Of a stretch of 64,000 nucleotides of DNA, positions 21,008-49,403 are shown one piece after another (the first letter of the stretch is position 1; every line of letters begins with the position of its first letter). Made by a program: the position numbers and the translations under genes. The notes beneath the pieces were generated by a model. The model did not search any database, had not been told where the DNA came from, and saw only the letters and a program-made list of their open reading frames with translations. The DNA comes from a virus. Taxonomy: Duplodnaviria; Heunggongvirae; Uroviricota; Caudoviricetes. The stretch is from positions 1-64,000 of the IMG/VR virus record IMGVR_UViG_3300035034_002381. The stretch is one strand, 5' to 3'.

Positions 21008-21032
21008 GAAATATCTTAAACTATATAAATAC

Positions 21033-21067
21033 CGAGAGGGGATCGAAAGATTCCCTCTTTTTTTTTG
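21033..21067 (+). terminator. rho-independent terminator (GAGAGGGGA-TCGAAAG-ATTCCCTCTC plus TTTTTTTTT)
   Basis: Strong hairpin then 9 T. Confidence 0.8.
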
Positions 21068-21070
21068 CAT

Positions 21071-21099
21071 AAAACTTTATTCAATATTGTATATATAAT
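21071..21099 (+). promoter_or_regulatory. promoter-like motif AAAACTTTATTCAAT-N6-TATATAAT (copy 2)
   Basis: Matches 10985-11014. Confidence 0.45.
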
Positions 21100-21116
21100 A
21101 TACAATTATTAGAGCC

Positions 21117-26081: not shown

Positions 26082-26085
26082 AAAT

Positions 26086-28949: not shown

Positions 28950-29134
28950 TTTTTAAAGTAAGAGTAGAAGAAAAGAGCATAGAAGATGTTATAGAACTTA
29001 TTGAAACAGGAGAAGGGAAAAAAGGTCTCCAATTTGATCTATATAATGAAAAACCATATTTTTCACATGTAGAAATTTTCGTTAATACTGATGATTTCTA
29101 CACATTAAAGGATTATTTAAATGAACAAACCTAA
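28946..29134 (+). CDS. small hypothetical protein
   Basis: 62 aa; ATGA overlap. Confidence 0.35.
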   Translation: MIFKVRVEEKSIEDVIELIETGEGKKGLQFDLYNEKPYFSHVEIFVNTDDFYTLKDYLNEQT

Positions 29135-32816: not shown

Positions 32817-33455
32817 ATGAACATATTTGTTCTTGACGAAAATGTCAAAAAATGTGCCGAATATCATTGTGATAAACATGTTGTCAAAATGATTACTGAG
32901 CATAATCAAATTTTGGGTTCGATTTCTTATTTACGTAGAGGTATTTCTAAAAAATCGGAAATAACTGATGAATTTATTCAACAACATTTCCAAAATTTTC
33001 CTAGAAAAAAATTAGCAATTGATATGGATTCATTACCCATTGCTGATCATTCGCCACTTATCAAAAAATTATGGAATTTTGTAAAACCCGCAGAATTGTC
33101 TTGGCCGTACGGTATTGGTTATAAAAATCATCCATGTACACAATGGGCTAATGCGTCTAAAGAAAATTATGATTGGCTATGCTCACTCAATCTTGAATTG
33201 TGTAAAGAATATACTAAACGATATAATCGTCGACATGCTGGTGAGGATATTACTCAATGGTATATTGAAAACGCACCATATCTACCGAATTCTGGCATGA
33301 CTCCATTTGTTTTAGCTATGCCTGATGATTGTAAATCTGATGATCCAGTTGAATCTTATCGAATTTACTACATTTATCATAAATATAAATTTGCCAAATG
33401 GAAAACAAAAGTTCCAAATTGGTATATAAACGTTATAAAACATCAAGAAATATGA
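32817..33455 (+). CDS. hypothetical protein
   Basis: 212 aa. Confidence 0.5.
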   Translation: MNIFVLDENVKKCAEYHCDKHVVKMITEHNQILGSISYLRRGISKKSEITDEFIQQHFQNFPRKKLAIDMDSLPIADHSPLIKKLWNFVKPAELSWPYGIGYKNHPCTQWANASKENYDWLCSLNLELCKEYTKRYNRRHAGEDITQWYIENAPYLPNSGMTPFVLAMPDDCKSDDPVESYRIYYIYHKYKFAKWKTKVPNWYINVIKHQEI

Positions 33456-34122: not shown

Positions 34123-35022
34123 ATGATATCAGAAGAAAAATTTCCCGATGGACAAATTAATTTTAAAGCAAATACAGAGGACATCAAAAGTCTTTTAACA
34201 CCACCATACATTTTATCAAATGATAATGCGATAAATTTTACAATTGATCTAAGTAACTGGGATAAATTTCAAACTTTGTTGGCAGCCAATGCAAAATTTA
34301 GACAAACGCACAAACAAATTAATTTACATATAGGTTATCTTTTTGGTTCAAGAAGTGACCGTAAATTTGAACATGACGGAATTAACTATTTTCGTGATGT
34401 AATTGCTAAAACAATCAATGATCAAAATTTCAACAAAGTTACTGTATTTGATCCACACTCACTTGCAGTAGAAAATGCAATTAATAATTGTGAGAGTATT
34501 CATCCGTTCCCACAAATCAATCACCATTTTTTAAATATGGTTGGAAATTTAGATTTATCTGAATATGAAATTGTTATAGCGTCTCCAGACCTTGGGGCAT
34601 ACAAAAAAGTCTTTGGAATTTTTGCTAAATTTTCCGAAAAATATCCAAACATACATTTTAATTTTATTTCCGCAAATAAAATTCGTAGTCTGTCTGGTGA
34701 TATTTCTATGGTTTTAAATCCACCATATAAAGAATTTGACAAATCAAAAAAACGAATTCTATATTTAATTGATGATATTTGTGATGGCGGGAGGACCTTT
34801 ATAGAATTTGCTAAACTTCTTAACGAAGATTTTGAGAAAAAGTATCTATATGTATCACATGGAATATTTTCTAAAGGTCTTGATCCATTATTAGAACATT
34901 TCGATAAAATTTTTACTACAAACAGTATTTCGAATACTTATATCAAATATCTAACAAACGATAATACCATTCTAAATTCTAACATTCTTTTTACCACATT
35001 TATTTCGCAACGCAATGAATAA
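34123..35022 (+). CDS. ribose-phosphate pyrophosphokinase (Prs) homolog; could be an Adps-type enzyme
   Basis: 299 aa; PRPP-binding loop ILYLIDDICDGGRTF; VTVFDPHS resembles Prs DLHA region. Confidence 0.55.
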   Translation: MISEEKFPDGQINFKANTEDIKSLLTPPYILSNDNAINFTIDLSNWDKFQTLLAANAKFRQTHKQINLHIGYLFGSRSDRKFEHDGINYFRDVIAKTINDQNFNKVTVFDPHSLAVENAINNCESIHPFPQINHHFLNMVGNLDLSEYEIVIASPDLGAYKKVFGIFAKFSEKYPNIHFNFISANKIRSLSGDISMVLNPPYKEFDKSKKRILYLIDDICDGGRTFIEFAKLLNEDFEKKYLYVSHGIFSKGLDPLLEHFDKIFTTNSISNTYIKYLTNDNTILNSNILFTTFISQRNE

Positions 35023-35989
35023 AAAAGCAACAATTCTTCTTGGACTGCCATTAGCAGGCAAGTCGACTTATATAGGAAACAGAATAGAATATGGTGATTG
35101 GTCAGACACAGGATTAGTTTTAGTATCTGCAGATGATCTTAAAGAAAATCATGAAGATTATGATCCCGACCATGCGTATAAAATTCATGAGTGGTCAGTT
35201 AAAGAGGCCGAAAGGCAAATGAAAGAATACTCAGAATTTGGATCAAAACACATTATCATGGACGGTGGTGGCATTAACAATTCATATACTCGTAGAATTA
35301 TGTCTGATCTACGTTTAAAAGGTTATGAAATTGAACTTATACATATTAAAACGCCGCTCCAAGTTTGTCTTCTTAGAAATGAGAAGCGGGTCCGCAAAGT
35401 TCCAGTGCATGATATTGTAACAAAGGCAGCTCGAGAACGTAAACAATATGAGATACTTAAAGATGTTGTAGATAGTGTTACTATAGTTCCATATTTCACA
35501 AACAAACATATTTTTATAGATATGGATGGAGTTATTGCGGGACAGTCTGTCTTGCCAGAATTTGAAGGAAAAATAGATTTTGTTAATAGCGAAATTTTTA
35601 CTATTTTACCACCTGTTCATCAAGTTATTGATAAACTTAATAGTCTTGATTCTGAAAAACATACACTTTATATTTTATCAGCAACACCGAATTCATATTC
35701 GTATACTGAAAAACATGATTGGTTAGATAAACATTTTAACATACCAAGAGAACGCAGATTTTTTGTAAATGCTGGAAAGCATAAAGCAGAAATGTTAGAA
35801 AATCTAAGAATAAAACTCAAAACTGATAAACGTGATGTCACTCTGATTGAAGATACGCACTCGACACTTAAAGATGTTAGAGACCTTAGAATGAATCCAA
35901 TACATGTATCTGAATTTTTATCAAATGATTTTTTGCGAGATGAAGAATTATATGACTATAAATATTACGAAAACCCAAATAATAAATAA
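35015..35989 (+). CDS. P-loop nucleotide kinase fused to HAD/NT5C-like phosphatase domain (PNKP-like architecture)
   Basis: Walker A GLPLAGKST at N-terminus; C-terminal FIDMDGVIAG (DxDGV) HAD motif. Confidence 0.5.
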   Translation: MNKKATILLGLPLAGKSTYIGNRIEYGDWSDTGLVLVSADDLKENHEDYDPDHAYKIHEWSVKEAERQMKEYSEFGSKHIIMDGGGINNSYTRRIMSDLRLKGYEIELIHIKTPLQVCLLRNEKRVRKVPVHDIVTKAARERKQYEILKDVVDSVTIVPYFTNKHIFIDMDGVIAGQSVLPEFEGKIDFVNSEIFTILPPVHQVIDKLNSLDSEKHTLYILSATPNSYSYTEKHDWLDKHFNIPRERRFFVNAGKHKAEMLENLRIKLKTDKRDVTLIEDTHSTLKDVRDLRMNPIHVSEFLSNDFLRDEELYDYKYYENPNNK

Positions 35990-35995
35990 AAAGAT

Positions 35996-37714
35996 ATGAG
36001 AAAAATGAACGCTTTCTTAGCAACCGATGGTTATAAAACAGGCCATCACATAATGTATCCTGAAGGAACTATTGAGGTATATGATAATTTAACACCCCGC
36101 AGTTTTAAATACGCAATCAACAATGTCGAGTATGTTATTGCTGTGGGTCAAAAAATGGCAGTCACAGAAATCAACGATATGTTTAACGAAACATTTTTTA
36201 GACATGAAGATGTTGAAAGACTTGCCTTTCATTTATTTAGACAAGGATTACCTGAACAAAAAGCTAAAGAAACCGCAAGAAATAAAATTAAAGCCGAAGT
36301 ATGTAGTGAAATCAAAAAGGAGTTTTCGTTATATCTAGATATGAAATATGATGTTTCGCATATTGAAAGACTTTGGGATTTAGGATATCTTCCTGTAAAA
36401 ATAAAAGCTTTACCAGAAGGTGTAAAGGTCCCAATAAAGGTTCCTGTACTTACAATTGTAAATACTTTGCCAGATTTTTTCTGGTTACCTAATTTCTTGG
36501 AGACTATTATTTCTAATTTGTTATGGAAACCTATGACATCTGCAACTATTGCGTACGAGTTCAAGAAAACTTTGACTAAATGGGCAATGAAAACTGATAG
36601 CAAAAATGTTTCTATTGTAGAATTTCAGGCACATGATTTTTCAATGCGAGGAATGGATTCTATTTATGCTGCTGCTTCATCAGGTTTAGGTCATGCATCA
36701 TCATTCCTTGGAAGTGATACAATACCAGTAATTCATGCAGCAAGATATTATTATGGTGATCAAGGTCCTATTATACATTCTGTAAATGCTACAGAACACA
36801 GTGTCATGTGTGCTGGAGAAAAAGATAGTGAAATTGAAACATTCAGACGATTATTGCGTCTTTTCCCGACAGGAATCTTATCAGTAGTTTCTGATACTTG
36901 GGATTTATGGAAAGTGATAGTAAAATATCTTCCTGAATTAAAGGACGAAATTCTAAAAAGAGCAGGAAAACTGGTTATTAGACCTGACTCTGGAAATCCT
37001 GTTGATATTATTTGTGGTTTTGATCATAATAGATTTGATACACACGAAGAAGCAGAAAAATATTATAGAACTTATGGAATAAAAGATCCAAAATACTATG
37101 TAAAAAACGAATTCTTTACTGTAATTTCACATTCAGGCAACAATTTTAAATATGCAGATTTAGAAGAGACTCCTGCTGATAAAGGAGTCGTGCAATTATT
37201 ATGGGAAATCTTTGGAGGGCAAATAAATGAAGATGGATTCAAAGTTTTAAATGAACACATTGGCGCAATTTATGGTGATAGTATTAATTTCGAAAGAGCA
37301 AATCAGATTTGTGAGAGACTAGCCAGCAAAGGATTTGCGACTACAAACGTTGTACTTGGAATAGGATCCTTCACATATCAGTATAACACTCGTGATAACC
37401 ATGGATTTGCCGTTAAAGCTACTCATATAACTATTCAACATCCTGATGGAAAAATGGAAGAAAGAGACATATTCAAAGACCCACTAACATCGGTAGGTAC
37501 AAATAAAACTAGTGCTAAAGGATTTATTCAAGTACTTAAAGAAAATGGAGAGTATATTATGAGAGATCAGGTTAGTAGAGAACAAGAAGAAAATTCTTTA
37601 CTTACAATGATTTATTTAGATGGTAAAGTTCTTTCCGAAGACACACTCAAAAGTATTCGTAGAAATGTGAATAACGAATTGGCTGTTGAATTAGGATTAT
37701 ATGAAGTAGCATAA
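35996..37714 (+). CDS. nicotinamide phosphoribosyltransferase (NAMPT/NadV) homolog; could be Namat-type
   Basis: N-terminus NAFLATDGYKTGHH; VIRPDSGNPVD and IYGDSIN match NAMPT conserved segments. Confidence 0.65.
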   Translation: MRKMNAFLATDGYKTGHHIMYPEGTIEVYDNLTPRSFKYAINNVEYVIAVGQKMAVTEINDMFNETFFRHEDVERLAFHLFRQGLPEQKAKETARNKIKAEVCSEIKKEFSLYLDMKYDVSHIERLWDLGYLPVKIKALPEGVKVPIKVPVLTIVNTLPDFFWLPNFLETIISNLLWKPMTSATIAYEFKKTLTKWAMKTDSKNVSIVEFQAHDFSMRGMDSIYAAASSGLGHASSFLGSDTIPVIHAARYYYGDQGPIIHSVNATEHSVMCAGEKDSEIETFRRLLRLFPTGILSVVSDTWDLWKVIVKYLPELKDEILKRAGKLVIRPDSGNPVDIICGFDHNRFDTHEEAEKYYRTYGIKDPKYYVKNEFFTVISHSGNNFKYADLEETPADKGVVQLLWEIFGGQINEDGFKVLNEHIGAIYGDSINFERANQICERLASKGFATTNVVLGIGSFTYQYNTRDNHGFAVKATHITIQHPDGKMEERDIFKDPLTSVGTNKTSAKGFIQVLKENGEYIMRDQVSREQEENSLLTMIYLDGKVLSEDTLKSIRRNVNNELAVELGLYEVA

Positions 37715-37790
37715 TGGAACAAGTTACATAATTTTCTAAAATAAACTGATTCTATTAAAACTTTTCAAGTCTAGATTAATATAAAATATA

Positions 37791-39107
37791 ATGAAAAGAT
37801 CTGGTATTAAAGTAGCGGTATTTCCCATGGGTTCAATTATCCGATTTAGGAAAGATGGAATCAAAAGATCGTTTGGTCGTTTAGAATATTATAATTTGAT
37901 TTGGGCGTTGGCCAGAAATCCAAGTATTTCGGAAATTTGGCTTTTACAAGTTTCTGATTGGGAACAATTGACTGATGATGAAAAAATTGATTTTGATCCT
38001 AGAAAAGTTATTCGTAACATTTATGCGGAATTTAAAGTAGACAAACCTAATAGTAAAAAACAAGAATCTTACGCTGATCTTTGGAACAAAATTTCTCATC
38101 TTAAGCAACCTGATTTTGCAATTGTATTTTCTACACAAGGTCTTACTAGAATTTCTATACCAAATATTATACCTAAAGTAAAAAATCCTGAAGAAAAAGC
38201 TAAATGTTTAGAAATGACAATACGCTATTGTTCTTCACAAATGTATTATCTAAACAATTCAGAAATTCCATATTTTTTGGTAGTTAATGATGGCAGATTT
38301 TTGTATACTAATACACATACAAAATATCTGGATATGTTTAATTTACCCAAAGAAATCATGGGATTTTACAAAAATGATGATTATATACTTCATCATTATG
38401 ATAAAATGCCGGATGATGGTGGCAAAATGACTACTGATGTTGTTAAGTTATCATACAGTAAAATGATTTGGCTTAATAATATCAGTGAAAAAATCATAGA
38501 CCCTGCCAACATAGAGAAAACTGAAAAGTTTTCTATTGTAGCTATGCAGGCAGCTTATGGTAAAGATAAACATGATCCTAGATATTCTATTCTAAAGGAG
38601 TGGTTTTTAGACGTAGATGGAAATGAAGATGTTTCGATTTATGGTAAATGGGGAGAATCTTATGTTAAAGATTATCAACATTTTAAAGGCTTAAAGCCAC
38701 ATACTGAAATTGATGAAATTTTCAAGAAAACTAGGTACACATTATTGATTCCAACAGAACCTTTATGGGTAACTACGAAAATATGTGAGATGTTGAAATT
38801 GGGTGTTGTCCCGTTTTTGCATCCTAGTTATGATGAAAAAAATCTATCATTTGGAGAGGATTCATTTTTTAGAGTAAAAAATCCGGAAGATTTAAAAAAG
38901 AAGATTTCATTTTTAGAAAAAAATCCAGATAAAAGAATCAAGCTCATACAAAAGGCTCAAGAAAAATATATGGAAGGTGTCACAAACGGAACTTGTGTCG
39001 TCGACGCAATTAATCCATATCTTCAACGGGCTAATATTGATGTAGAATTGCAACATGGATTTAGTGATGAACTAATTCGTAAGCGCAAAGTTAAAAAATT
39101 ATTTTAA
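37791..39107 (+). CDS. hypothetical protein (possible GT-B-like glycosyltransferase C-terminal half)
   Basis: 438 aa; C-terminus ...EMLKLGVVPFLHP faintly GT-B like. Confidence 0.45.
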   Translation: MKRSGIKVAVFPMGSIIRFRKDGIKRSFGRLEYYNLIWALARNPSISEIWLLQVSDWEQLTDDEKIDFDPRKVIRNIYAEFKVDKPNSKKQESYADLWNKISHLKQPDFAIVFSTQGLTRISIPNIIPKVKNPEEKAKCLEMTIRYCSSQMYYLNNSEIPYFLVVNDGRFLYTNTHTKYLDMFNLPKEIMGFYKNDDYILHHYDKMPDDGGKMTTDVVKLSYSKMIWLNNISEKIIDPANIEKTEKFSIVAMQAAYGKDKHDPRYSILKEWFLDVDGNEDVSIYGKWGESYVKDYQHFKGLKPHTEIDEIFKKTRYTLLIPTEPLWVTTKICEMLKLGVVPFLHPSYDEKNLSFGEDSFFRVKNPEDLKKKISFLEKNPDKRIKLIQKAQEKYMEGVTNGTCVVDAINPYLQRANIDVELQHGFSDELIRKRKVKKLF

Positions 39108-39110
39108 ATT

Positions 39111-40319
39111 ATGAAGAATAAATTTTCTAAGGATGGACATTGGAGATTCGGTACTATAGTTCCATTAATCGGGGGAATGACCATATCCAACCAACAAGCA
39201 ACCGGAGATAATCCGGACTTTTTAATATCTTATCCAGCGTTTGCAGGCAATGATTCTCATTGTGTTAATCATTTTAAAGATACCCCATATTATGTAGTCG
39301 ACCCAGAAACTAATGAATTACCTGAAGACGATACTTTTCAAAATGTAGATTTTGTGTCTGCAGTGTGCCCATGTGCAGGACTTTCTATGTTAAATACTTC
39401 TAAGAAAAGAGGATCTGATGCAGAAATGAATAATTGGATGTATAAATCTGCAGAATTAGTTTTAGAACAAATTAAACCCAAAGTTTTTTGGGGGGAGAAT
39501 GCACCAGGTCTATATACAAAATCTGGTGAAGGTGTAGTCAAAAAATTGAGAGAAATTGCTGAAAAGAATGGTTATGTACTTTCATTAGTCAAAACTAATA
39601 CCTTTTTACATGGTATACCACAACATAGAACTAGAACTTTTTACTTTTTTTGGCAAGGTAAACATGCGCCAATACTGAATTATACCGAGCGGGATGCACC
39701 AACTCTTAAAGAATATCTAGATCAAATTCCTGAAAATGCTTCTATGCAAGATGAAAAATTCGGCTTAGAAAGTATGAATAGTCTTTGGTTTAAATTCTTA
39801 AAAGATCAAAACATAAAAATTTCAGATGTACAAAAAAGTACGTGTAAATCAATTATGGATTATTGTGTAGCCGAAAAATTGATGCCGAAAATGGTTGATT
39901 GGGGTGAAGAAAATGGATATGATAAAATGGTCAGGACTGCTAAGCATATTCTACATAAACAATCTATGGGTAAAGGTTGGTGGGACGCTACACCATTAGT
40001 ACCAACAGATACTATTAATGCGCTGATTAGTAAGAATGCTGGAATTGTCCACCCGAACGGAGAAAGACCAATTAATACCCGAGAAGCTTTATGGTTAATG
40101 GGATTACCACATGATTTTACTATGGTCGATTATGACAATAGAAAAAATAGCAATCACATTTGCCAAAACGTACCGGTAACCACTGCAAAAGACTGGACAT
40201 TCGAAGTGATGAAATTTATCAATAAAGATATTGAAAAAATTGCAACGCCGTTTCTAAAACAAAACAATATCAAACAAAGAATAGATTTACAAGAAAATAA
40301 ATCCAAAGCACTTTTTTAA
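39111..40319 (+). CDS. DNA (cytosine-5)-methyltransferase-like protein
   Basis: VPLIGGM (motif I-like), VCPCAGLS (PC catalytic motif IV), GENAPGL (ENV motif VI). Confidence 0.55.
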   Translation: MKNKFSKDGHWRFGTIVPLIGGMTISNQQATGDNPDFLISYPAFAGNDSHCVNHFKDTPYYVVDPETNELPEDDTFQNVDFVSAVCPCAGLSMLNTSKKRGSDAEMNNWMYKSAELVLEQIKPKVFWGENAPGLYTKSGEGVVKKLREIAEKNGYVLSLVKTNTFLHGIPQHRTRTFYFFWQGKHAPILNYTERDAPTLKEYLDQIPENASMQDEKFGLESMNSLWFKFLKDQNIKISDVQKSTCKSIMDYCVAEKLMPKMVDWGEENGYDKMVRTAKHILHKQSMGKGWWDATPLVPTDTINALISKNAGIVHPNGERPINTREALWLMGLPHDFTMVDYDNRKNSNHICQNVPVTTAKDWTFEVMKFINKDIEKIATPFLKQNNIKQRIDLQENKSKALF

Positions 40320-40321
40320 AT

Positions 40322-41761
40322 ATGAAACCTTTATTTGTAATAGAAGACGAAATACAAAATAAGTCTAATATATTCGAACTAATTAATCCACAAAAATTAG
40401 ATCCGAATAAAAAGACTATATTAATAATCACATACAAAAATTTTGCTGGTGATTTTGACTATATTTATGGATTTAATCACAAGATTATTGAATTATTAAA
40501 AGATCAATATAATATTGTATTTGCTGGAAAGGAAATTAAAAAGAATGTCATCGATATAGATAATTTCTATTTAATTGATATGAAAGGTTATACGAGTTTA
40601 AATCAGAATAGATTTAAGCGCAAAAAAGAAGATCCTAACAGTAACCAAATTAACAGAAATATTTTATGGGAAGAATTTGAATCTGCGTTCGGTGATTTAG
40701 AAATTGATTTAATTTTTTATGCGACACCAGAGTATGCGATTTTACCTCATGGTAAATCTTATCATAAAGATTTCAAAGAAATACAAAACGAAATTCATGA
40801 TTATGTAGGCGCAGATACTAAAAAGATTCAGCGTATTAACGAAATTATGTACGATATCTATGAAAATTATGATACCCATGCATCTATTTTAATGTTTTCT
40901 GCCTGGCATAAAAATGTCATGATGAACTTGCCGGTTTTTCTAAAAGAAAGAAATTCGTTTAAAGTCATTGCATTTTCTATTGATCCTGCAAATACTTATC
41001 GATATTTGGAACACCATGGAATAGAATGTACCAATTTTTATTTTGAAGAAGATAAACGTGGTACTCGCAATTTCGAAAAATTTCCAATAGCACATCTTCA
41101 ACATTTAATTTTTGAAAACAACGAAAATCCTACAGAAAAATATAGTTTAGAAAAAACTACAGATTTTTTCTTTATGGGAACGATTATTCAAGAAAAGGGA
41201 AGTAGAATGCAGATGTGGTATGAATTTTTATCAGATTTAAAATTAGACGATAAATCTAATTTTTGGATCCCAATTAAACATAATGGAATTTACCGAACTA
41301 AAAAACAAGAAACTAGTGGTCATACCAAAAAGGGTTTACAGATTATTGATGAAAAATTCACAGACATTAAAAATGCTATCATAAATCATCCCAATTTTTC
41401 TGGACATTTATTACCATCAGAAGTCAAAAAACATATTGTAGCTTATAAATATTCATTAGTATTGCGATGTGTTTCTATTTATGATAGTCTAAATTTTAGA
41501 CCTATTTATTATGTTTATTTAAACATTCTTCCATTTTTAGATCATATGTATGATCCAGATTATTTACAGATTCCTAAGAAATTTCAAGACAAATTAGCAG
41601 TATCTAATTCACGAGATATCGAGGATAGAATCAAATATTATAATCAAAATCCAAAAGAAAGAATTCAGTTATTAAAAGAAATGAGAGAGTTTTTTGAAAT
41701 AGACGAGTTTTTAGAAGATTGGAAAAACATAACACTAAAACATATAGATCATGCTAAATAA
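40322..41761 (+). CDS. hypothetical protein
   Basis: 479 aa. Confidence 0.5.
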   Translation: MKPLFVIEDEIQNKSNIFELINPQKLDPNKKTILIITYKNFAGDFDYIYGFNHKIIELLKDQYNIVFAGKEIKKNVIDIDNFYLIDMKGYTSLNQNRFKRKKEDPNSNQINRNILWEEFESAFGDLEIDLIFYATPEYAILPHGKSYHKDFKEIQNEIHDYVGADTKKIQRINEIMYDIYENYDTHASILMFSAWHKNVMMNLPVFLKERNSFKVIAFSIDPANTYRYLEHHGIECTNFYFEEDKRGTRNFEKFPIAHLQHLIFENNENPTEKYSLEKTTDFFFMGTIIQEKGSRMQMWYEFLSDLKLDDKSNFWIPIKHNGIYRTKKQETSGHTKKGLQIIDEKFTDIKNAIINHPNFSGHLLPSEVKKHIVAYKYSLVLRCVSIYDSLNFRPIYYVYLNILPFLDHMYDPDYLQIPKKFQDKLAVSNSRDIEDRIKYYNQNPKERIQLLKEMREFFEIDEFLEDWKNITLKHIDHAK

Positions 41762-42398
41762 GATATTTAAAAGTTTGAGTAATTCTGAAAATGAAGCATT
41801 ATGTGTACAAAGAACTAATCTTTTATTCGAAGCATTAGATATTATAGAAAAACATAATGGGAAAGCTTGGTTAGATTGTGGTACTTTGTTAGGTGCGTAT
41901 AGAGATGGTGAATATATTCCATGGGACGTCGATGTAGATTTAGGAATTAATATCGAGGATGTTACTGAGGAAATGCTAAATGATTTCAGAGATAAATATA
42001 ATATACGACACGATAATGGAAACTTAGATCAATACAAATTTTGCTCATTTTATAAGAGAGATGAAAATGGTGATAATTACAAATTTAGAAGATGTAATTT
42101 ATGGATTGATTTACATATGTACTATCCAAATTATGATGGTACAAGAACTATGACAATTACTACAGGAAAAATTAGAGCACCTAAAAAAATCTTTCCAGCA
42201 CCTGCTGAATGTATCGAGAATTTAGAACAAATTGAATGGCAAGGTAGAAAAGTAAATATTCCTAGTAAAACTGTAAAATATTTAGAACAATGGTATGGAT
42301 ATGATTGGGACGTACCTAACGATAAATGGAAAATGTCTCCGAGTTGGTACGATAATCCAACAAATGACAAAATTATTCAAGGTAAAACCCTCTTTTAA
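41751..42398 (+). CDS. LicD-family phosphotransferase (CDP-alcohol phospho-group transferase, fukutin-like)
   Basis: LDCGTLLGAYRDGEYIPWDVDVDLGI matches LicD signature. Confidence 0.6.
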   Translation: MLNKIFKSLSNSENEALCVQRTNLLFEALDIIEKHNGKAWLDCGTLLGAYRDGEYIPWDVDVDLGINIEDVTEEMLNDFRDKYNIRHDNGNLDQYKFCSFYKRDENGDNYKFRRCNLWIDLHMYYPNYDGTRTMTITTGKIRAPKKIFPAPAECIENLEQIEWQGRKVNIPSKTVKYLEQWYGYDWDVPNDKWKMSPSWYDNPTNDKIIQGKTLF

Positions 42399-42416
42399 AC
42401 AAAATAAACAAAACAA

Positions 42417-43178
42417 ATGCATATATTAAATGAATATTTTGACAAGATTTATATTACCAACCTCGACTCGGCCAAAGATAGATATGAAAGATTATCTAAA
42501 GAACTGGATTCATTTGGCGTTGTTTATGAAAGATTCAAAGCATTGACTCCAGATGATGCAAGAAAGGTATTTGCTGAAAAAGGCCTAAAGATTCCTAAAA
42601 GTAATAGTGGAGCTCTTGGTTGCGCAACTTCACATTATATATGCTGTCAACAGGCTGCGAAAAATGGACTTAAAAGAATTTTGATTCTTGAAGATGATGC
42701 AAGAATAACCGATATAGATTTTAATCAAGAGACTCAAAATTTAGTTGAACAAATAAGAAAAACCGACTGGTTTTATCTAAAGCTTGGTTATAATATCACT
42801 AACCAGATGTTAGACGAAAATTTTGAGTTTCATAGAGTTTCAGAAAATTTGTTTAATCTTTCAAAAAGTTCTATGACCACCGCTATAGCTTTCAATATCG
42901 AAAAAATCGTAGAGGATGAGAATGCTTCCACAGTTTTTATTTCTGATCACGCATTAGAAAATAGTAAATTGAATATTCATATTGACCATAGATTGTTTAT
43001 GATGTGTAACGAATTCGGAATTCTACAATGCCATTATTATCCAGCAATATTTACTCAGACTGATGGGTATTCATACATAGGAAAAGAAGAAAGGAAATTC
43101 TCTAATATTGATAAAAGAACAAACAGAATATTCAAAGAGCATATACAATCTTCTAGCTCAACAAAAAAATTATTTTAA
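42417..43178 (+). CDS. family 25 glycosyltransferase-like (Lic2B/LgtB type)
   Basis: KIYITNLDSAKDRYERL..., GALGCATSHY, ILILEDDARI. Confidence 0.5.
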   Translation: MHILNEYFDKIYITNLDSAKDRYERLSKELDSFGVVYERFKALTPDDARKVFAEKGLKIPKSNSGALGCATSHYICCQQAAKNGLKRILILEDDARITDIDFNQETQNLVEQIRKTDWFYLKLGYNITNQMLDENFEFHRVSENLFNLSKSSMTTAIAFNIEKIVEDENASTVFISDHALENSKLNIHIDHRLFMMCNEFGILQCHYYPAIFTQTDGYSYIGKEERKFSNIDKRTNRIFKEHIQSSSSTKKLF

Positions 43179-43196
43179 ACAAAGAAAATAGAAAAT

Positions 43197-43976
43197 ATGG
43201 AATTTTTAAATATACTACAATCGGAATTACAATCGGGATTTATTTACATACCTAATAGAGGCAATGCTGGGGATGTTGTCATTCAACAATCTACTATTAA
43301 ATTTTTTGAAAAAAATAATCTAAACTTCGAATTAGGAAAAAACACTACAACTTATGTTGGGGAAAATCTAGTTTATGGTGGGGGTGGAAATTTGATTGGA
43401 AAATACCAACCGGCTAAAAAATTCATAAAATTAAATGCGGAAAAAAATCATATAATGATATTACCGCATACAATTAAGAACAGCGAAAAGTCTTTAAATA
43501 TGCTGAATAAGGATTCTATTGTTTTTTGCAGAGAAAGAATATCTCATGAATATGTTAGTAAATTTATTGAAAAATGTTATTTACATAAAGATATGGCTTT
43601 TCATCTAGATTTAGAATCTTATAAAAAGGAATCTAAATATGAAGTAGGAAATATATTTAGAATGGATGTCGAATCTTCTAATAACGTTAAAAAAATTCCA
43701 TCTAATAATGTGGATATATCCAGTGTTTTTAATCGTAGAAATCAGCATACAAATTTAGAAGTAGCTCAAGCTGTATTTGATGATTTTGTTAATTATATAG
43801 CAGATTTCGAAATTGTAAACACAGATAGATTACATATTGCAATTATTGCTGCAATATTGGGAAAAAATGTTAATCTTTATCCTAACTCATATTATAAAAA
43901 TAAAGCCGTATATGACTATACATTATCGTTAGAATATCCCAACGTCAATTTTATCGATGAAGTAAAATATAGATGA
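43197..43976 (+). CDS. polysaccharide pyruvyl-transferase-like protein
   Basis: IPNRGNAGDVVI resembles the GxxNxGDxxI pyruvyl-transferase motif. Confidence 0.4.
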   Translation: MEFLNILQSELQSGFIYIPNRGNAGDVVIQQSTIKFFEKNNLNFELGKNTTTYVGENLVYGGGGNLIGKYQPAKKFIKLNAEKNHIMILPHTIKNSEKSLNMLNKDSIVFCRERISHEYVSKFIEKCYLHKDMAFHLDLESYKKESKYEVGNIFRMDVESSNNVKKIPSNNVDISSVFNRRNQHTNLEVAQAVFDDFVNYIADFEIVNTDRLHIAIIAAILGKNVNLYPNSYYKNKAVYDYTLSLEYPNVNFIDEVKYR

Positions 43977-44030
43977 TGCATTTTAAAACTTTTTATTAAT
44001 GTATTAATATAAACTTTAATATACTTTTTT

Positions 44031-44603
44031 ATGAAAACAATTATTATTGAAGGATGTGATAGAGTAGGAAAAGATACAGTTTGTAATGGAATAAAACTGA
44101 CTGCGGACTGTTTACTTTATCGACATTGGCTTAAACCTAAAGGTCAAACTAATGATGAAAGAGTTAATTATCAAAAGACAACATTTAAAAAGGAATTTGA
44201 TTTACGTAAATCTTTTTTGGATGATTGGTATCTTAATGATAATGATAAAAATTCTGATTTAATTCTTTGGAACAGAAGTCATATTGGAGAATATGTTTAT
44301 GGAAAACTATATCGAGACTATGATCCAAATTGGATTTATAATCTGGAAAATCTTTATAATTTTTCTGATAATAACATTTATTTGGTAATGTTATATGCAG
44401 ATCCAGATTTTTTGTGTGAGAATGATGATGGACATTCATTCAGTTCTGATATTGAAGGTAAAACGCAAGAAATCAATTTATTCCACGAAGCAGTGGATAA
44501 AAGTCTAATACCAAATAAAATAAAAATAAAAGTAAATGACGGAAAACGTTACCGAGACAGAAAAGAAATTAGAAAAGAAATTTTTGATCGAATCTTCAAT
44601 TAA
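44031..44603 (+). CDS. dNMP kinase (thymidylate-kinase-like P-loop)
   Basis: IIIEGCDRVGKDT Walker A at N-terminus; 190 aa. Confidence 0.55.
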   Translation: MKTIIIEGCDRVGKDTVCNGIKLTADCLLYRHWLKPKGQTNDERVNYQKTTFKKEFDLRKSFLDDWYLNDNDKNSDLILWNRSHIGEYVYGKLYRDYDPNWIYNLENLYNFSDNNIYLVMLYADPDFLCENDDGHSFSSDIEGKTQEINLFHEAVDKSLIPNKIKIKVNDGKRYRDRKEIRKEIFDRIFN

Positions 44604-44649
44604 TCAAAGATTCCAAGAACTTATTGAGCAGATTGAGATATCTGCAGAA

Positions 44650-45468
44650 ATGAATGGTACAGTTAATCCACGAGATTTACTGGTTAAAGAATCACTACTT
44701 ACAGGATTTTCTATTGATCCAAGATATCCATGTATAGATTTCGAAGCAAGAAAATTCAACTATAAATATTTTGCTGCTGAGGTTGCATGGTATTTATTAA
44801 AAGATAATACAACAGAATTTATTTCTAAGTTTTCCAATTTCTGGAATAATATTACAAATCCAGATGGAACTATTAATTCTAATTATGGAAAAATTCTATT
44901 AACACAAATAAACAATACTATCACACCAATAGCATGGGTAGTAAATTCTTTAAGAAAAGATAAAAATTCTAGACAAGCAATTGCATATATTGGAAGTAAG
45001 GATTTTCAATATGAAGGAAATAAAGATTTTGTGTGTACTCAATATATTTTGTTTTTTATTCGAAACGATGAACTTCATATGAAAGTTCAAATGAGATCAA
45101 ACGATATTTTTTATGGATTATCTTATGATGCTCCTTGGTTTTCGTTAGTTCATCAAAATACATTTCTTGAACTAAAAGAATTATATCCAGAATTAAAAAT
45201 TGGAAAGTATTTTCATTTTTCTGATAACTCACATTTTTATCAAAGACATTTTAGTAAAGCTCAAGAAGTCTTACAAGAAGAGGTTAAGCTTGGTCCTAAA
45301 ATTGTTCTTGAGAAACCTTTATGGAGAACTTATGAAAATGGTAATTGCGTTATTACTGAAACGGCTAGTAATTATATAGATTTTTTCAATAAAAATTTAG
45401 GTGATTTATCCGAGTATAAAAACGAACAATTTAAAGAAGTTCTCAAAAAAATCGTAAAAATTAACTAA
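44650..45468 (+). CDS. thymidylate synthase / dCMP hydroxymethylase family pyrimidine-modifying enzyme
   Basis: SRQAIAYIGS, FVCTQYILFF (catalytic Cys position), MRSNDIFYGLSYDAPWFSLV parallel ThyA core motifs; start set at internal ATG (first ATG 44536 would overlap kinase gene). Confidence 0.55.
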   Translation: MNGTVNPRDLLVKESLLTGFSIDPRYPCIDFEARKFNYKYFAAEVAWYLLKDNTTEFISKFSNFWNNITNPDGTINSNYGKILLTQINNTITPIAWVVNSLRKDKNSRQAIAYIGSKDFQYEGNKDFVCTQYILFFIRNDELHMKVQMRSNDIFYGLSYDAPWFSLVHQNTFLELKELYPELKIGKYFHFSDNSHFYQRHFSKAQEVLQEEVKLGPKIVLEKPLWRTYENGNCVITETASNYIDFFNKNLGDLSEYKNEQFKEVLKKIVKIN

Positions 45469-45532
45469 ACAAAAATTTTATAGTACCAATATTTTTTATT
45501 ATATTTGTACTGTAATTAAAAACAACACATAC

Positions 45533-46681
45533 ATGAATAATCAAAAAACAATCCAGGCGATTGAGGATAAATTCTCCGCCGCAATTGAACCGCTGAAAAA
45601 GCAAACTGTTCGTAAAGAAATTAATTTTAGAGACATTGAAATCAATGATTCTAAATTATATTTTCAAGATACACCACTTTCAAAAATTGCACAAAGAAAA
45701 ATTTTGAATGAGTTGCAAGTCAAAAGTGGATTTATCAATTATTCTGAAAAATTGGAAGATCGTGACTGGGAAATGATTTCTAAAAAACTTAAAGATGCAC
45801 AAGGTGATCGGGTTGTTTATGGAAATTTTGAAACCGACTCAGAAAACAAAGAAATTATCCAAAACGTTTTTGGTAAAAAACAAGACAAACCTGCTGCCGA
45901 TCCTGGAGATTATGATTTTTTCATAAACTCAATTACAGAGTCTTTAGGAAAATCTGAAATTGAATATGATTTGGGATCATTTAATTTTGATCAATACCGA
46001 AGAATTTTTGATTTATCCCTGCTAAACAGAGAATCAAGTATTGATATCTTTAAGGATGGAAAAGATATTTGGGATGGCGGTCATTCATTCACATTCAATA
46101 CTTCACAATTTTCTACTTCACCATTTTTCGAAAGATTGGTTTGTACTAATGGAATGAGAAGTCGCCAAAACATGTTTAGCTCTTCAATTAACCAAAGTAA
46201 ATTCAATGTTAAGAAAATATCCAGATTGATTGAAAAAAATATTTTGGATGGTACGGAATCTTTGAATGAAGCAATCATGATTCAAGCTAATCACTTGATC
46301 AAAAACAACATCTCAATTAATGAATTTGATATTTTCCGCAAGAAATTCATTACATCCGACGAAGAAAAACAACACCTTTTCGAAAAAATTCGTAATCAAT
46401 ATTTTGATGATAAGCCTTTCTATAAAGCTTATGGAGAAAATATTGCGGAAAAATCGAAAAAATGGAGATCAACCGCAAATTCAGGAATCAATGCATATCA
46501 ATTTTTTAATATGCTTACCTGGTTAGGTTCTCACCAAAAAGAAACTGGATTGTCTGACACAGTTTCTAGAGATATCCAACTAAGCGCCTCTAATCTGTTT
46601 TTCAAAGAAAATCTTGATTTGGAAGATGTGGCTGGAAATGTTAACGTGGATTATCCTGTTAATGATATTGCGTTCGCATAA
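45533..46681 (+). CDS. hypothetical protein
   Basis: 382 aa. Confidence 0.5.
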   Translation: MNNQKTIQAIEDKFSAAIEPLKKQTVRKEINFRDIEINDSKLYFQDTPLSKIAQRKILNELQVKSGFINYSEKLEDRDWEMISKKLKDAQGDRVVYGNFETDSENKEIIQNVFGKKQDKPAADPGDYDFFINSITESLGKSEIEYDLGSFNFDQYRRIFDLSLLNRESSIDIFKDGKDIWDGGHSFTFNTSQFSTSPFFERLVCTNGMRSRQNMFSSSINQSKFNVKKISRLIEKNILDGTESLNEAIMIQANHLIKNNISINEFDIFRKKFITSDEEKQHLFEKIRNQYFDDKPFYKAYGENIAEKSKKWRSTANSGINAYQFFNMLTWLGSHQKETGLSDTVSRDIQLSASNLFFKENLDLEDVAGNVNVDYPVNDIAFA

Positions 46682-46717
46682 GATTTTCTTTTCATAATTA
46701 ATCCATTCTGTGGATTA

Positions 46718-46751
46718 AAGCCCGAGCAAATTAATGCTCGGGCTTTTTTAT
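46718..46751 (+). terminator. rho-independent terminator (AAAGCCCGAGC-AAATTAAT-GCTCGGGCTTT plus TTTTA)
   Basis: 11-bp hairpin; second hairpin TTAATCCA-TTCTG-TGGATTAA just upstream. Confidence 0.7.
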
Positions 46752-46796
46752 GTTGTTTAAAAATTGATATATAATCTATAAAGAAAATAACATATA

Positions 46797-47360
46797 ATGA
46801 AAAATTTAAAATCTTACGAAAATTTTGAGAATCAACTTTTAGAAAATGGGTGGAGTGGTGAACATCTCGACGCAAATTTTAAACTTGATGGAAATGAAGT
46901 AATTGTGACTTTTGATAAAGCCATGACTTCAGCAGTCAAAAAAGTTCTTGCTGGAAAGAACGATCCTCTACTTGATACAGTAGAGGATGAGATCAGAATT
47001 CAATTAGGTAGAGAAATTGACTGGGATCAAGATGTTGAACCATCTAAATCAGGTATAGGAATGAGATTTGTGCTTGAACATATTCAACTTTTTGAAGGAA
47101 AAGCTTCGCCTGGTGGTGAAATAGAAATTAAAGAACTACAAGATTTGGTAGATGATTTACCTAAAACTGTAATTACACAAAACGCAGAGTACGACAGATT
47201 CGACAGAAATTTTAATTTTGAATTTACAATTAGTGGTGATAATTGGCAGATATATTATGACAAATTGGCCAAGTCACCATATTTATTAAATCTGGATAGT
47301 GGAACGGATAAAGAAATAGTTAATCCACTGGAATTACAAAAATTACTTAAATCATTTTAA
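46797..47360 (+). CDS. protein with capsid-targeting-like N-terminus MKNLKSYENFENQLLE
   Basis: 187 aa; family N-terminus. Confidence 0.55.
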   Translation: MKNLKSYENFENQLLENGWSGEHLDANFKLDGNEVIVTFDKAMTSAVKKVLAGKNDPLLDTVEDEIRIQLGREIDWDQDVEPSKSGIGMRFVLEHIQLFEGKASPGGEIEIKELQDLVDDLPKTVITQNAEYDRFDRNFNFEFTISGDNWQIYYDKLAKSPYLLNLDSGTDKEIVNPLELQKLLKSF

Positions 47361-48273: not shown

Positions 48274-48876
48274 ATGCAAGGACAATTATACCAATGGCAA
48301 AAAGGTGAATACATTGAACAATATTCTAAAGCTATCGATGTAGAAGAAGAAGGCGAGATGTCATTTCTGATTTTTGAAGATGGTAGAAGAATTAACATCG
48401 AACTTATTGAAGAATTTCTTATACCAGTAAATTCAGAAGACGAAGGTTATATTATCAGAGAAGAAGTTATAGATGATTTAGTAGAAATGAAAGGTAAAGA
48501 CGGTGGGATATATACTGTTCCTGGACCAGATCATGGTAAGCGTCGGATCACGAAAAAACCTAAAACCAAACAAGCCAAACCCATCATCACATCGACACCT
48601 AAACAACAAATTAAAGAGGAACCTAAAAATCTTTATCCTAATGATCCTATAATAGCACTCTTAGAAAAATCAAAAAAGGTCACCAAACCTATTAATATAA
48701 CATTACGTTTAGATATTATTACACAAGGTACATACGATCTGATTATTGACAATTTTGAAGATAGTGAAGAAAGCATTGTTGAATATTTGATTTCTTCTAT
48801 CGATAAAAAGGAATTAGTGGAAAGTATAAAGGTTCAACTTAAAGGTTCGTATTCGAAAACACCAATCACAGTATGA
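48274..48876 (+). CDS. hypothetical protein
   Basis: Internal ATG of ORF 48112..48876 chosen to avoid overlap. Confidence 0.45.
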   Translation: MQGQLYQWQKGEYIEQYSKAIDVEEEGEMSFLIFEDGRRINIELIEEFLIPVNSEDEGYIIREEVIDDLVEMKGKDGGIYTVPGPDHGKRRITKKPKTKQAKPIITSTPKQQIKEEPKNLYPNDPIIALLEKSKKVTKPINITLRLDIITQGTYDLIIDNFEDSEESIVEYLISSIDKKELVESIKVQLKGSYSKTPITV

Positions 48877-49403
48877 AAGATAAAAATTTAAAATATGAAT
48901 CGAAGAGATTTAACGTTGTTAAAAAACAGGGTAGAGTTAAAATAGATTATAAAAAAATGACAGTTGGCGTTTTACCATATACTATTAAAGATGGACTCCT
49001 AGACAAAATTGGTATTCTGCATGAATGGAATCCTACAAGACAAGATGATTTTTGTCACACGATAATCACTGGTACTGTAGACCCAGAAGATACTGATTAT
49101 CTTTTTGCGGCAAAAAGAGAATTACTTGAGGAAGGTGGCATTAAAGATACTAATGACGATAATTGGATATTTTTAGGTTCATTTTACGTTTCAAAAGGCA
49201 GTAATGAAATGTGTCACACCTTTGCAGTAGATGTTACAGATCTAGAAATTGGTGAAGCAGTAGGAGATGGTTCTGATGCTGAAGAAAAATCTGAATTTTC
49301 TTTAATGGATTCAGGAAATGCAATTACAATTACTAATGAAAGTTTAGTCTTAGCCTCATTTCTAAGACTGTTTGACTTCTTTTATCAAAAGAATAATGGG
49401 TAA
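48873..49403 (+). CDS. Nudix hydrolase
   Basis: Nudix box GTVDPEDTDYLFAAKRELLEEGGI (G-x5-E-x7-REL-x-EE-GG). Confidence 0.65.
   Translation: MKDKNLKYESKRFNVVKKQGRVKIDYKKMTVGVLPYTIKDGLLDKIGILHEWNPTRQDDFCHTIITGTVDPEDTDYLFAAKRELLEEGGIKDTNDDNWIFLGSFYVSKGSNEMCHTFAVDVTDLEIGEAVGDGSDAEEKSEFSLMDSGNAITITNESLVLASFLRLFDFFYQKNNG

Follow-up and report, generated by a model that had tools for sequence, protein, structure and literature searches.

A predicted T4-type cytosine hypermodification operon with an atypical C5-methyltransferase-fold protein in a phage of huge-phage capsid lineage

Which base would be made by a phage operon that combines a cytosine-5 (C5) methyltransferase-fold gene with a nucleotide kinase and a thymidylate synthase homologue? 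This question is raised by the region from 37791 to 46681 in positions 1 to 64,000 of the tailed-phage record IMGVR_UViG_3300035034_002381; this whole stretch of 64,000 nucleotides is called the window in the following, and all positions refer to it unless another contig is named. A first-pass annotation had described the three genes as a likely source of modified-base DNA with 5-hydroxymethyl or 5-methyl pyrimidines. All three exist on the plus strand, and the family matches are far beyond chance for the methyltransferase-fold protein (C5MT-like protein in the following) and the synthase homologue, while the Pfam match of the kinase lies below its threshold; PHROG matches agree with these assignments. 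Based on homology and synteny, the operon probably encodes a cytosine hypermodification of the T4 type, in which 5-hydroxymethylcytosine (5hmC) would be formed before replication and glycosylated afterwards. Support for the expected modification of cytosine in the DNA, with a probable glycosylation, comes from the active-site signature of the synthase homologue, from the match of a glycosyltransferase (GT) to T4 DNA beta-glucosyltransferase and from the recurring gene set. The system appears to extend the T4-type pathway by one unusual component, the C5MT-like protein, and the system as a whole likely serves to shield phage DNA from host nucleases.

The full open reading frame (ORF) of the synthase homologue (44536-45468) matches the family PF00303 Thymidylat_synt with an E-value of 6.3e-18 and 65.3 bits (cut-off 24.3). 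Its best solved relative is T4 dCMP hydroxymethylase (1b49, E 1.4e-14), and the CMP hydroxymethylase MilA, too, ranks ahead of the true thymidylate synthases. Concerning the start of the gene, the public gene call (P0121, 294 aa) uses a TTG at 44584. In the long ORF, which starts at 44536, the alignment with homologues begins at residue ~14-23. The start at 44650 given in the first-pass annotation is an internal methionine, so that the gene itself stands and its start moves to 44584 or 44536. The gene overlaps the stop codon of the kinase gene.

The active-site classification of the enzyme was based on an alignment of the window protein with E. coli ThyA, T4 gp42, RB69 gp48, Xp15 gp36, S-TIM5 gp076 and 120 database homologues. 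At the ThyA positions 58, 80, 94, 143, 146, 147, 165-169, 173 and 177, the window protein comprises the residues E, W, Y, D, C, T, M, R, S, N, D, G and D. This 13-position signature is that of a cytosine hydroxymethylase and identical to the signatures of T4 gp42 and of Enterococcus phage 9183 gp044, and the specificity-defining residues are common to 120 of 120 homologues. The catalytic-cysteine region, the retention of which had been noted before, reads DFVCTQ; its cysteine aligns with ThyA C146 (T4 C148) and is kept in all 120 homologues. The canonical ThyA residues N177, L143 and H147 are changed to D, D and T, and the aspartates at N177 (T4 D179) and L143 are again shared by all 120. ThyA D169 stays an aspartate in the window protein and in each of these homologues, whereas RB69 gp48 comprises an asparagine in the same alignment. 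In ThyA-type enzymes, N177D selects dCMP, an acidic residue at L143 accompanies non-methyl products by giving water access and thereby a hydroxymethyl product, and D169N marks the flavin-dependent 5-hydroxy-dCMP synthases, with asparagine in all tested ones (PMC13326640). Since the window protein combines N177D and an acidic L143 with a retained D169, it is predicted to be a dCMP hydroxymethylase. The signature points to 5-hydroxymethyl-dCMP as the product and not to dTMP, 5-methyl-dCMP or 5-hydroxy-dCMP. Of the two kinds of base proposed at first, the hydroxymethyl one is thus supported in the form of 5hmC, and the 5-methyl or thymine type is dropped. A 5-hydroxy-dCMP synthase of the RB69 gp48 type was ruled out by the retained D169.

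It would be very surprising if the enzyme made dTMP, 5-methyl-dCMP, 5-hydroxy-dCMP or 5-hydroxymethyl-dUMP, and the DNA base were not 5hmC. The membership in PF00303 would allow this, NCBIfam lists only thymidylate synthase models for the protein, all of them far below their cut-offs, and the specificity is deduced from few residues. These residues, however, speak a different language: the aspartate at N177 excludes a preference for dUMP, the one at L143 matches the hydroxymethylases, D169 is kept (PMC13326640), and the signature equals that of T4 gp42 in full. Outside the window, 30 of the 36 synthase homologues in loci with a C5MT-like gene carry the full T4 signature.

Several synthase homologues in other loci showed features of their own. 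Two of those near C5MT-like genes have a glutamate at L143 but keep N177, H147 and Q165, a combination that would point to a dUMP hydroxymethylase if judged as in PMC13326640. In the cyanophage S-TIM5 (L008, NC_019516), gp076 (5763-6599), annotated as thymidylate synthase, comprises the cytosine-type aspartate at ThyA N177. At a distance of 3 kb, gp080 (8983-10200) is encoded, a protein annotated as hypothetical that belongs to the atypical C5MT-like family. This suggests that the DNA of S-TIM5 may carry a modified cytosine. In Xanthomonas phage Xp15 (L016, 3321-7257), a T4-signature synthase is encoded beside a NodU-type carbamoyltransferase and a dCMP deaminase, an arrangement that has been linked to 5-carbamoyloxymethylcytosine (PMC8670742).

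In every syntenic relative, the gene immediately before the synthase gene is that of the kinase, and the same holds for 14 of the 80 best-matching IMG/VR synthase loci (out of at least 546). The P-loop described in the first-pass annotation is present, and the assignment to the dNMP kinases comes from the family: the window protein reaches PF02223 Thymidylate_kin with 16.3 bits (cut-off 27), and as a single sequence it found no match in a phmmer search of the PDB. A profile of its 30-member family (A6) reaches the thymidylate kinase structures 2wwf (1.9e-5) and 2yof (4.9e-5) and also those from vaccinia (2v54) and yeast (1tmk), and 21 of the 30 members match PF02223. A comparison by hhalign with RB69p045, the 'thymidylate kinase' of the RB69 hypermodification cluster, gave a probability of 88%. 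The family shares the invariant motifs EGxDRxGKD and NRSHxGE, which we equate with the thymidylate kinase P-loop and DR(Y/H) motif. From the likeness to thymidylate kinases together with the adjacency to the synthase gene, we infer a role as 5-hydroxymethyl-dCMP kinase.

The GT gene at 37791-39107 precedes the C5MT-like gene. As a single sequence its product found no solved match. A profile of the family (A4, a 23-member alignment that includes Enterococcus phage 9183 gp048) has T4 DNA beta-glucosyltransferase (1bgt) as its best solved match with an E-value of 2.2e-5, and the profile positions 142-401 align to the residues 86-348 of the 351 in the 1bgt chain. By homology and synteny, the protein is predicted to glycosylate 5hmC in DNA. 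A 479-aa paralogue is encoded on the other side of the C5MT-like gene and is syntenic in 15-17 related loci. Its link to the GT-B family is given through hhalign only: the comparison of A4 with the profile of the 479-aa family (A5) gave a probability of 98.1% and an E-value of 6.9e-14 for the C-terminal domains, and A5 found nothing in the PDB.

Altogether, the following pathway is proposed. The synthase homologue would turn dCMP into 5-hydroxymethyl-dCMP with methylene-tetrahydrofolate, an activity read from its signature. The thymidylate-kinase-like enzyme would phosphorylate this product, the host nucleoside diphosphate (NDP) kinase would convert it to 5-hydroxymethyl-dCTP, and the phage polymerase would incorporate the latter instead of dCTP. 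After replication, the two beta-glucosyltransferase-like (beta-GT-like) GT-B enzymes and a GT25-family enzyme would put sugars on the hydroxymethyl group, with NDP-sugars provided by the upstream phosphatase and nucleotidyltransferase genes. The glycan would probably be extended by a LicD-family phospho-alcohol transferase and a pyruvyl transferase, and the C5MT-like enzyme would act on C5 of DNA cytosine.

Several observations weigh against this pathway. No dCTPase, dCMP deaminase or DNA polymerase was found in the 64-kb window, and a complete replacement of cytosine can therefore not be argued; the Nudix hydrolase downstream of the operon is only a weak candidate here, and its role in clearing dCTP would be speculative. 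The match of the kinase family is weak, its profile reaches T4 gp1 (1dek) with a marginal E-value of 0.69, so that the enzyme is not of the T4 gp1 type, and the single-sequence AlphaFold2 (AF2) model of the kinase is unusable at a predicted local distance difference test score (pLDDT) of 39.8. LicD, the pyruvyl transferase, a GT2-family enzyme with tetratricopeptide repeats (GT2-TPR) and an FkbM-type methyltransferase belong to the classic enzymes of polysaccharide synthesis, and their product could be a glycan that is not part of the DNA. Finally, a C5 methyltransferase would be left without a substrate on fully 5hmC-substituted DNA, and the C5MT-like family is altered at positions that are important for methyl transfer by M.HhaI.

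The latter protein matches PF00145 DNA_methylase with an E-value of 8.5e-24 (85 bits, cut-off 22). An AF2 model calculated with 38 homologues reached a pLDDT of 90.3, and the top Foldseek matches of this model were M.HhaI, M.HaeIII, DNMT1 and DIM2, with a probability of 1.00 and template modelling (TM) scores of 0.57-0.71 for M.HhaI and M.HaeIII; the carboxymethyltransferase CmoX (8yf3) was also among them. The catalytic motifs are invariant in the family and comprise the PC of motif IV (CPCAGLS), the glutamate of ENV in motif VI (GENAPGL), the QxRxR of motif VIII (HGIPQHRTRTF) and the RE of motif IX (REALWLMGLP). With variants, the invariant stretches read PL(I/V)GG, PC(A/S)GLS, ENAP, HGIPQxRxR and QNVP. 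Based on this conserved Cys/Glu/Arg machinery, the protein would act on C5 of cytosine in DNA.

The changes were found on the cofactor side, in every member examined including S-TIM5 gp080, although not all of the ~2,600 database relatives were checked for the atypical motifs. In motif I, which reads (V/I)PL(I/V)GG (VPLIGG in the window protein), the first glycine of FxGxG is an invariant leucine. The residue after the catalytic cysteine (M.HhaI Q82) is alanine, or serine in 2 of 30 sequences, and never the glutamine of PCQ. Motif X is QNVP and not GNxV, with M.HhaI G303 changed to an invariant glutamine and N304 kept as Asn353. The residue closing strand 2 (DSSP 37-40) is a serine, at what we take to be the position of the ribose-binding glutamate in M.HhaI. 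By the same presumed mapping, it corresponds to the ribose-binding glutamate of CmoX (PMC12783734). The family profile aligns to M.HhaI and M.HaeIII from motif IV on and not upstream of it. The nearest canonical phage methyltransferase, phiD12, comprises GG, PCQG, ENVP and GNAVP. In M.HhaI, the residues Q82, Y254 and N304 surround the space of the transferable group, and the exchange Q82A lowers methylation ~16-fold and raises the activity with an extended S-adenosylmethionine (AdoMet) analogue (PMC3526304).

The view that a C5-methyltransferase-like gene is typical of pathways for such bases could not be upheld for this family, as its motifs are atypical and no obvious substrate exists if C5 is substituted. 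The protein fits poorly into the 5hmC scheme because C5 of 5hmC is already substituted and 5-methylcytosine (5mC) cannot be glycosylated. On balance, we lean slightly towards a working AdoMet-type methyltransferase that covers those cytosines that escape replacement. According to this conservative reading, the protein may be a real but atypical methyltransferase, which would parallel the rare contigs with both synthase and 5mYOX genes.

It appears unlikely, by comparison, that the enzyme is not a methyltransferase and that its covalent Cys-C6 mechanism serves to attach to cytosine C5 a group that is larger or bears a hydroxyl, or to act on 5hmC. In this case, it would make or edit the acceptor of its beta-GT-like neighbour, alongside the pre-replicative synthase route. 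Such a transfer would explain the invariant alanine or serine at Q82, the QN of motif X, the leucine in FxGxG and the serine closing strand 2, and it would agree with the behaviour of M.HhaI Q82A and with the precedent of CmoX, a phage C5-methyltransferase homologue that transfers a carboxymethyl group (PMC12783734) and is found among the fold matches. However, the catalytic motifs of true C5-methyltransferases are all intact, the asparagine of motif X included. The adenine-binding aromatic residue after strand 2 and the aspartate after strand 3 appear conserved, which makes AdoMet binding plausible, and no conserved adjacent gene for the synthesis of a cofactor, such as CmoA, was found. An extended version, in which a phage-exclusive non-methylating C5 transferase generates a bulkier or hydroxyl-bearing group or an activated 5hmC as acceptor of the beta-GT-like enzyme, and the glycan gains a LicD phospho-alcohol and a pyruvate ketal, is considered improbable.

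Two known systems were rejected as assignments for the C5MT-like protein. CmoX membership would comprise an SPPC motif and an arginine at M.HhaI N304 (SpCmoX R350), and the family has CPCA and Asn353 instead; no CmoA (carboxy-AdoMet, Cx-SAM, synthase) domain was detected among the scanned ORFs of the window, in which the only other methyltransferase-fold gene is the FkbM-type one, 7 kb away. A system of C5-methyltransferase and TET dioxygenase was rejected since no TET_JBP match was obtained in the scanned ORFs of the window or of the related locus L045.

The distribution of the family bears on the same choice. The C5MT-like protein has 2,597 relatives in the databases at E<=1e-5, and 127 IMG/VR stretches encode one. 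Among 185,579 species genomes, in which restriction-enzyme partners had been sought, the family was found on two contigs of metagenome-assembled genomes (MAGs) only. The only one of them long enough to judge (L100, PWLF01000036.1, from a 'Bacteroidales bacterium' MAG) has a phage-like content and is probably a phage contig. This near absence from cellular genomes favours a non-methyl transfer. On L100, homologues of the C5MT-like, kinase, synthase and Nudix genes were observed at 7992-16696; the Nudix homologue (35% identity) lies 4 kb downstream of the synthase gene, and none was found in the 80 related IMG/VR loci. This contig hints at a Bacteroidota host for the phage group of the window.

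For the gene neighbourhoods, the ORFs of 87 loci (80 from IMG/VR, 6 others and the window, not dereplicated) were clustered, and neighbours were counted up to 10 kb from the C5MT-like gene. In 51 of these loci, a beta-GT-like gene was present, typically 1-2.5 kb ahead of the C5MT-like one, and 35 contained a synthase homologue. Both occurred together in 22 loci, 29 showed a beta-GT-like gene with no synthase within 10 kb, and 23 showed neither. Contigs with the C5MT-like and beta-GT-like genes but no synthase in this range include IMGVR_UViG_3300031519_006853 (181 kb) and 3300025120_000017 (172 kb). Since 5mC cannot take a sugar, the 51 loci, 29 of them without a synthase, can be read in favour of a non-methyl product. 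The synthase-less GT loci include a T4-like replication module. In L045, the one that was annotated in detail, the order is ribonucleotide reductase, KdsA-like, GT2, HAD, APH-like kinase, nucleotidyltransferase, beta-GT-like, epimerase, C5MT-like, probable GT8-like, a 249-aa protein, WavE, DNA polymerase, UvsX and helicase; the T4 counterpart of this neighbourhood is gene 42 beside beta-gt. No TET was found among the scanned ORFs of this locus, and the C5MT-like motifs are the same in loci with and without a synthase gene nearby, both of which point in the same direction. On the other side, the 'synthase-less' contigs could encode a synthase or TET at a distance beyond 10 kb, and both complete cultured genomes with the family (S-TIM5 and Pseudoalteromonas phage vB_Psh_XG4) have a cytosine-type synthase nearby. 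The best 80 of at least 546 IMG/VR synthase relatives comprise none from synthase-less C5MT contigs. The 338-aa protein encoded downstream of the C5MT-like gene in synthase-less loci shows DDD and H..G..KKP motifs and is presumably GT8-like. For the 249-aa protein of these loci, BLASTP gave T4 gp45 with an E-value of 0.067, and no informative PHROG was obtained.

A conserved gene order is seen in related contigs of 75-238 kb. It runs from a nucleotidyltransferase through a gene like the 479-aa one, in some contigs GT25, and GT-B to the C5MT-like gene; after a variable slot, the kinase, synthase and GT2-TPR genes follow. In L005-L007, an FkbM-type gene lies beyond GT2-TPR. The slot between the C5MT-like and kinase genes contains LicD, Exo_endo_phos or Methyltransf_24 or is empty, which suggests a diversification of one product. 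A duplication was observed in L003 (4802-7191, same contig as L047, IMGVR_UViG_3300042691_053605), where the kinase/synthase pair is preceded by two tandem C5MT-like paralogues that share 43% and 39% identity with the window protein.

The features of the operon and of its surroundings in the window are listed in Table 1.

Table 1. Positions of the predicted genes and the terminator-like site in the window, with the matches on which the assignments are based.
Feature	Position	Strand	Evidence or remark
HAD/PNKP-type phosphatase	26563-26973	+	PF25109 HAD_PNKP, E 6.3e-5
Sugar nucleotidyltransferase, 566 aa, with C-terminal extension; predicted NDP-sugar supply	26960-28660	+	PF00483 NTP_transferase, E 6.2e-17
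GT2-family glycosyltransferase with TPR repeats	29121-31064	+	PF00535, E 3.7e-11; weak TPR matches; phrog_13126, E 1.9e-27
FkbM-type methyltransferase, candidate sugar O-methyltransferase	31064-32362	+	PF05050 Methyltransf_21, E 1.3e-15
Phosphoribosyl pyrophosphate (PRPP) synthetase-like gene	34123-35022		nicotinamide adenine dinucleotide (NAD) salvage block
P-loop kinase with NT5C-like domain	35015-35989		NAD-salvage block
Nicotinamide phosphoribosyltransferase	35996-37714		NAD-salvage block
GT-B glycosyltransferase, predicted DNA 5hmC glycosyltransferase	37791-39107	+	Glyco_trans_1_2 PF13524, E 2.7e-6
C5-cytosine DNA methyltransferase-fold protein with atypical cofactor-side motifs	39111-40319	+	402 aa
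479-aa paralogue of the beta-GT-like glycosyltransferase	40322-41761	+	weak Pfam match to Glyco_trans_1_2
LicD-family phosphotransferase	41751-42398	+	PF04991, E 9.8e-17, 62.2 bits (cut-off 22.6), in two stretches
GT25-family (GT-A) glycosyltransferase	42417-43178	+	PF01755, E 1.9e-17; phrog_2835 glucosyltransferase, E 1.9e-13
Polysaccharide pyruvyl transferase homologue (PS_pyruv_trans)	43197-43976	+	PF04230, E 3.6e-13, 50.5 bits (cut-off 25.3)
Thymidylate-kinase-like P-loop kinase, predicted 5-hydroxymethyl-dCMP kinase	44031-44603	+	190 aa; P-loop EGCDRVGKDT
Thymidylate-synthase-fold predicted dCMP hydroxymethylase	44584-45468 (alternative ATG start 44536)	+	
382-aa protein	45533-46681	+	weak DUF932 match only; last gene before the terminator
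Intrinsic-terminator-like hairpin	46717-46746	+	12-bp stem with 7 G-C pairs, followed by a T run
Nudix hydrolase	48873-49403	+	PF00293, E 1e-5

The genes from 37791 to 45468 overlap or are separated by gaps of 2-54 nt, and the hairpin is the only strong terminator-like site on the plus strand within 37600-46900. Due to this tight spacing and the lone terminator, 37791-46681 looks like one transcription unit. A scan for sigma-70 promoters gave fewer matches than in shuffled sequences and is uninformative in AT-rich DNA. The glycosyl and phospho-alcohol transferases that the first-pass annotation had mentioned nearby were confirmed by Pfam (Glyco_trans_1_2, LicD, GT25 and PS_pyruv_trans). LicD enzymes move a phospho-alcohol from a CDP-activated donor. 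The window protein also matches the cholinephosphotransferase model NF045866 with an E-value of 4.3e-20, which lies below the model cut-off, and the contig P0003 encodes LicD plus a cytidylyltransferase at the equivalent position. The GT25-family protein was compared with the TET-associated glycosyltransferases (PF20691 TAGT) as well, with an E-value of 8.4e-4 and 19.8 bits (cut-off 27.5), and GT25 fits better; genes of this family adjoin the GT-B/C5MT pair in L005, L010 and L012. The pyruvyl transferase was found in none of the 80 related IMG/VR loci and is therefore regarded as a lineage-specific addition. Homologues of the 382-aa protein are encoded downstream in L003, L005 and L019, and it is uncertain whether this protein is part of the modification system.

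Concerning the sugar supply, the HAD/PNKP phosphatase probably catalyses a sugar-phosphate step before the nucleotidyltransferase, and the same pair of HAD_PNKP followed by NTP_transferase is repeated in the relatives L005-L007. In L005, L010 and 13 of the 80 IMG/VR loci, homologues of the nucleotidyltransferase are encoded 3-6 kb before the C5MT-like gene. In Enterococcus phage 9183, the 544-aa gp047, which is NDP-sugar pyrophosphorylase-like, is a comparable protein. In L005, L010 and L012, the synthase gene is followed downstream by a GT2-TPR homologue, and the FkbM-type family occurs next to the GT2 gene in L005.

These accessory genes lead to the question whether all of them act on DNA. 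It is doubtful that the DNA is modified by the synthase, the kinase and perhaps one GT only, with LicD, the pyruvyl transferase, GT25, GT2-TPR, FkbM and the nucleotidyltransferase building a non-DNA glycan on a virion protein or on the host surface. The families concerned are typical of polysaccharide, teichoic-acid or lipopolysaccharide (LPS) synthesis, the pyruvyl transferase is unique to the window phage among the related loci and LicD is rare there, the NAD-salvage genes part the upstream sugar genes from the operon, and a phosphodiester-linked or pyruvylated DNA glycan is not reported in the literature cited here. However, LicD, GT25 and the pyruvyl transferase are encoded within the packed unit between the GT-B/C5MT and the kinase/synthase genes with no terminator in between. 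Furthermore, the variable cassette between the C5MT-like and kinase genes of the relatives resembles a diversification of one product, and phage DNA glycosyltransferases are known as repurposed LPS or teichoic-acid enzymes (bioRxiv 10.1101/2023.12.21.572611).

The window derives from a large phage genome; its G+C content is ~31%, and all long ORFs are on the plus strand. It comprises 21 tRNA genes at 229-10979, among which those for Met, Tyr, Ile, Val, Leu, Ser, Thr and Arg are duplicated. Genes of a head protease and the major capsid protein are found at 17120-21007, and the capsid protein is 40-43% identical to the capsids of the Lak megaphages and to that of a 462-kb uncultured phage. A megablast search with 37000-47000 against 50,697 phage records gave no nucleotide match, so that relatives are found at the protein level only. 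A few further genes were observed around the operon. A 647-aa 'RNA-binding protein' of phrog_850 is encoded amid the tRNA array (4529-6472), and TROVE (Ro60-like) proteins lie upstream of the modification cluster in the relatives L005 and L010. The gene of a 561-aa homing/HNH endonuclease directly follows the major capsid gene (region 19214-22802). The sugar-nucleotide genes are closely preceded by that of a SET-domain protein (26041-26505, PF00856, E 5.1e-11), and a homologue of the denV-type pyrimidine-dimer DNA glycosylase is encoded at 32817-33455 (PF03013, E 1.6e-10), a family that also occurs near the cluster on the P0003 contig. Between the sugar genes and the base-modification operon lies the NAD-salvage block (34123-37714).

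If the proposed pathway is true, a huge-phage lineage replaces cytosine with glycosylated 5hmC. The DNA would then behave differently in sequencing, restriction and CRISPR targeting, and T4-type chemistry would reach into a very different group of viruses. The more valuable lead is seen in the C5-methyltransferase-fold family, which is phage-linked and associated with T4 beta-GT-like genes in many lineages. Its substitutions concern positions that engineers mutate in order to make C5-methyltransferases transfer larger groups, and after the discovery of CmoX in 2025 it is a candidate for a further natural non-methyl C5 transferase. In that case, the enzyme could serve as a DNA-labelling tool. 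Furthermore, LicD and the pyruvyl transferase in the operon raise the possibility of DNA glycans that bear a phospho-alcohol or pyruvate.

Among the known systems, the 5hmC pathway of T4 (gp42, gp1 and the alpha- and beta-glucosyltransferases) resembles the operon in several respects. The synthase signatures are identical, T4 beta-glucosyltransferase is the best solved relative of the GT family in the window, and in both systems the nucleotide would be modified before replication and the glycosylation would follow on the DNA. In contrast to T4, the kinase is thymidylate-kinase-like and not gp1-like, the GTs number at least three and are joined by LicD and a pyruvyl transferase, a C5-methyltransferase-fold gene is an integral and conserved part, no gp56-type dCTPase was seen in the window, and the phage belongs to the Lak/huge-phage capsid lineage. 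The clusters for arabinosyl-5-hydroxycytosine in RB69 and DLP3 (PMC13326640) also combine a synthase with N177D and L143D/E, a Tmk-like gene (RB69p045), a long nucleotidyltransferase for an NDP-sugar and several DNA glycosyltransferases. Their synthases, however, carry D169N and use flavin for a C5 hydroxylation, whereas the window protein keeps D169, and their clusters are without a C5-methyltransferase-like gene.

The Enterococcus phages VPE25 and 9183 share with the window the order of Tmk, T4-signature synthase, NDP-sugar pyrophosphorylase-like protein and a homologue of the GT-B enzyme. For VPE25 and VFW, the cytosines were found by experiment to be bisulfite-resistant, and the authors took the encoded beta-glucosyltransferase as a sign of glycosylation (PMC4999554). 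In contrast to the window, this system of an 86-kb siphovirus of Gram-positive hosts is without C5-methyltransferase-like, LicD or pyruvyl transferase genes. The phage clusters of C5-methyltransferase, TET (5mYOX) and GTs resemble the window in that a C5-methyltransferase homologue is clustered with DNA glycosyltransferases, and some of their C5-methyltransferase clades show disrupted motifs and no detectable methylase activity (PMC8256090; bioRxiv 10.1101/2023.12.21.572611). They differ by their TET/JBP domain, which was not found in the scanned ORFs of the window or of L045; since the hydroxymethyl group would be supplied by the synthase homologue here, the logic of methyltransferase followed by TET does not apply. 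The CmoX/CmoA/CmoY system for 5-carboxymethylcytosine in Synechococcus phage S-B43 (PMC12783734) differs as well, as the SPPC motif and the arginine in place of N304 are absent from the window family (CPCA and asparagine), and neither CmoA nor an amide ligase is present. Nonetheless, 8yf3 is among both the fold and the sequence matches of the C5MT-like protein, and the system provides the example of a phage C5-methyltransferase fold that was repurposed near the transferable group and yields a handle for hypermodification.

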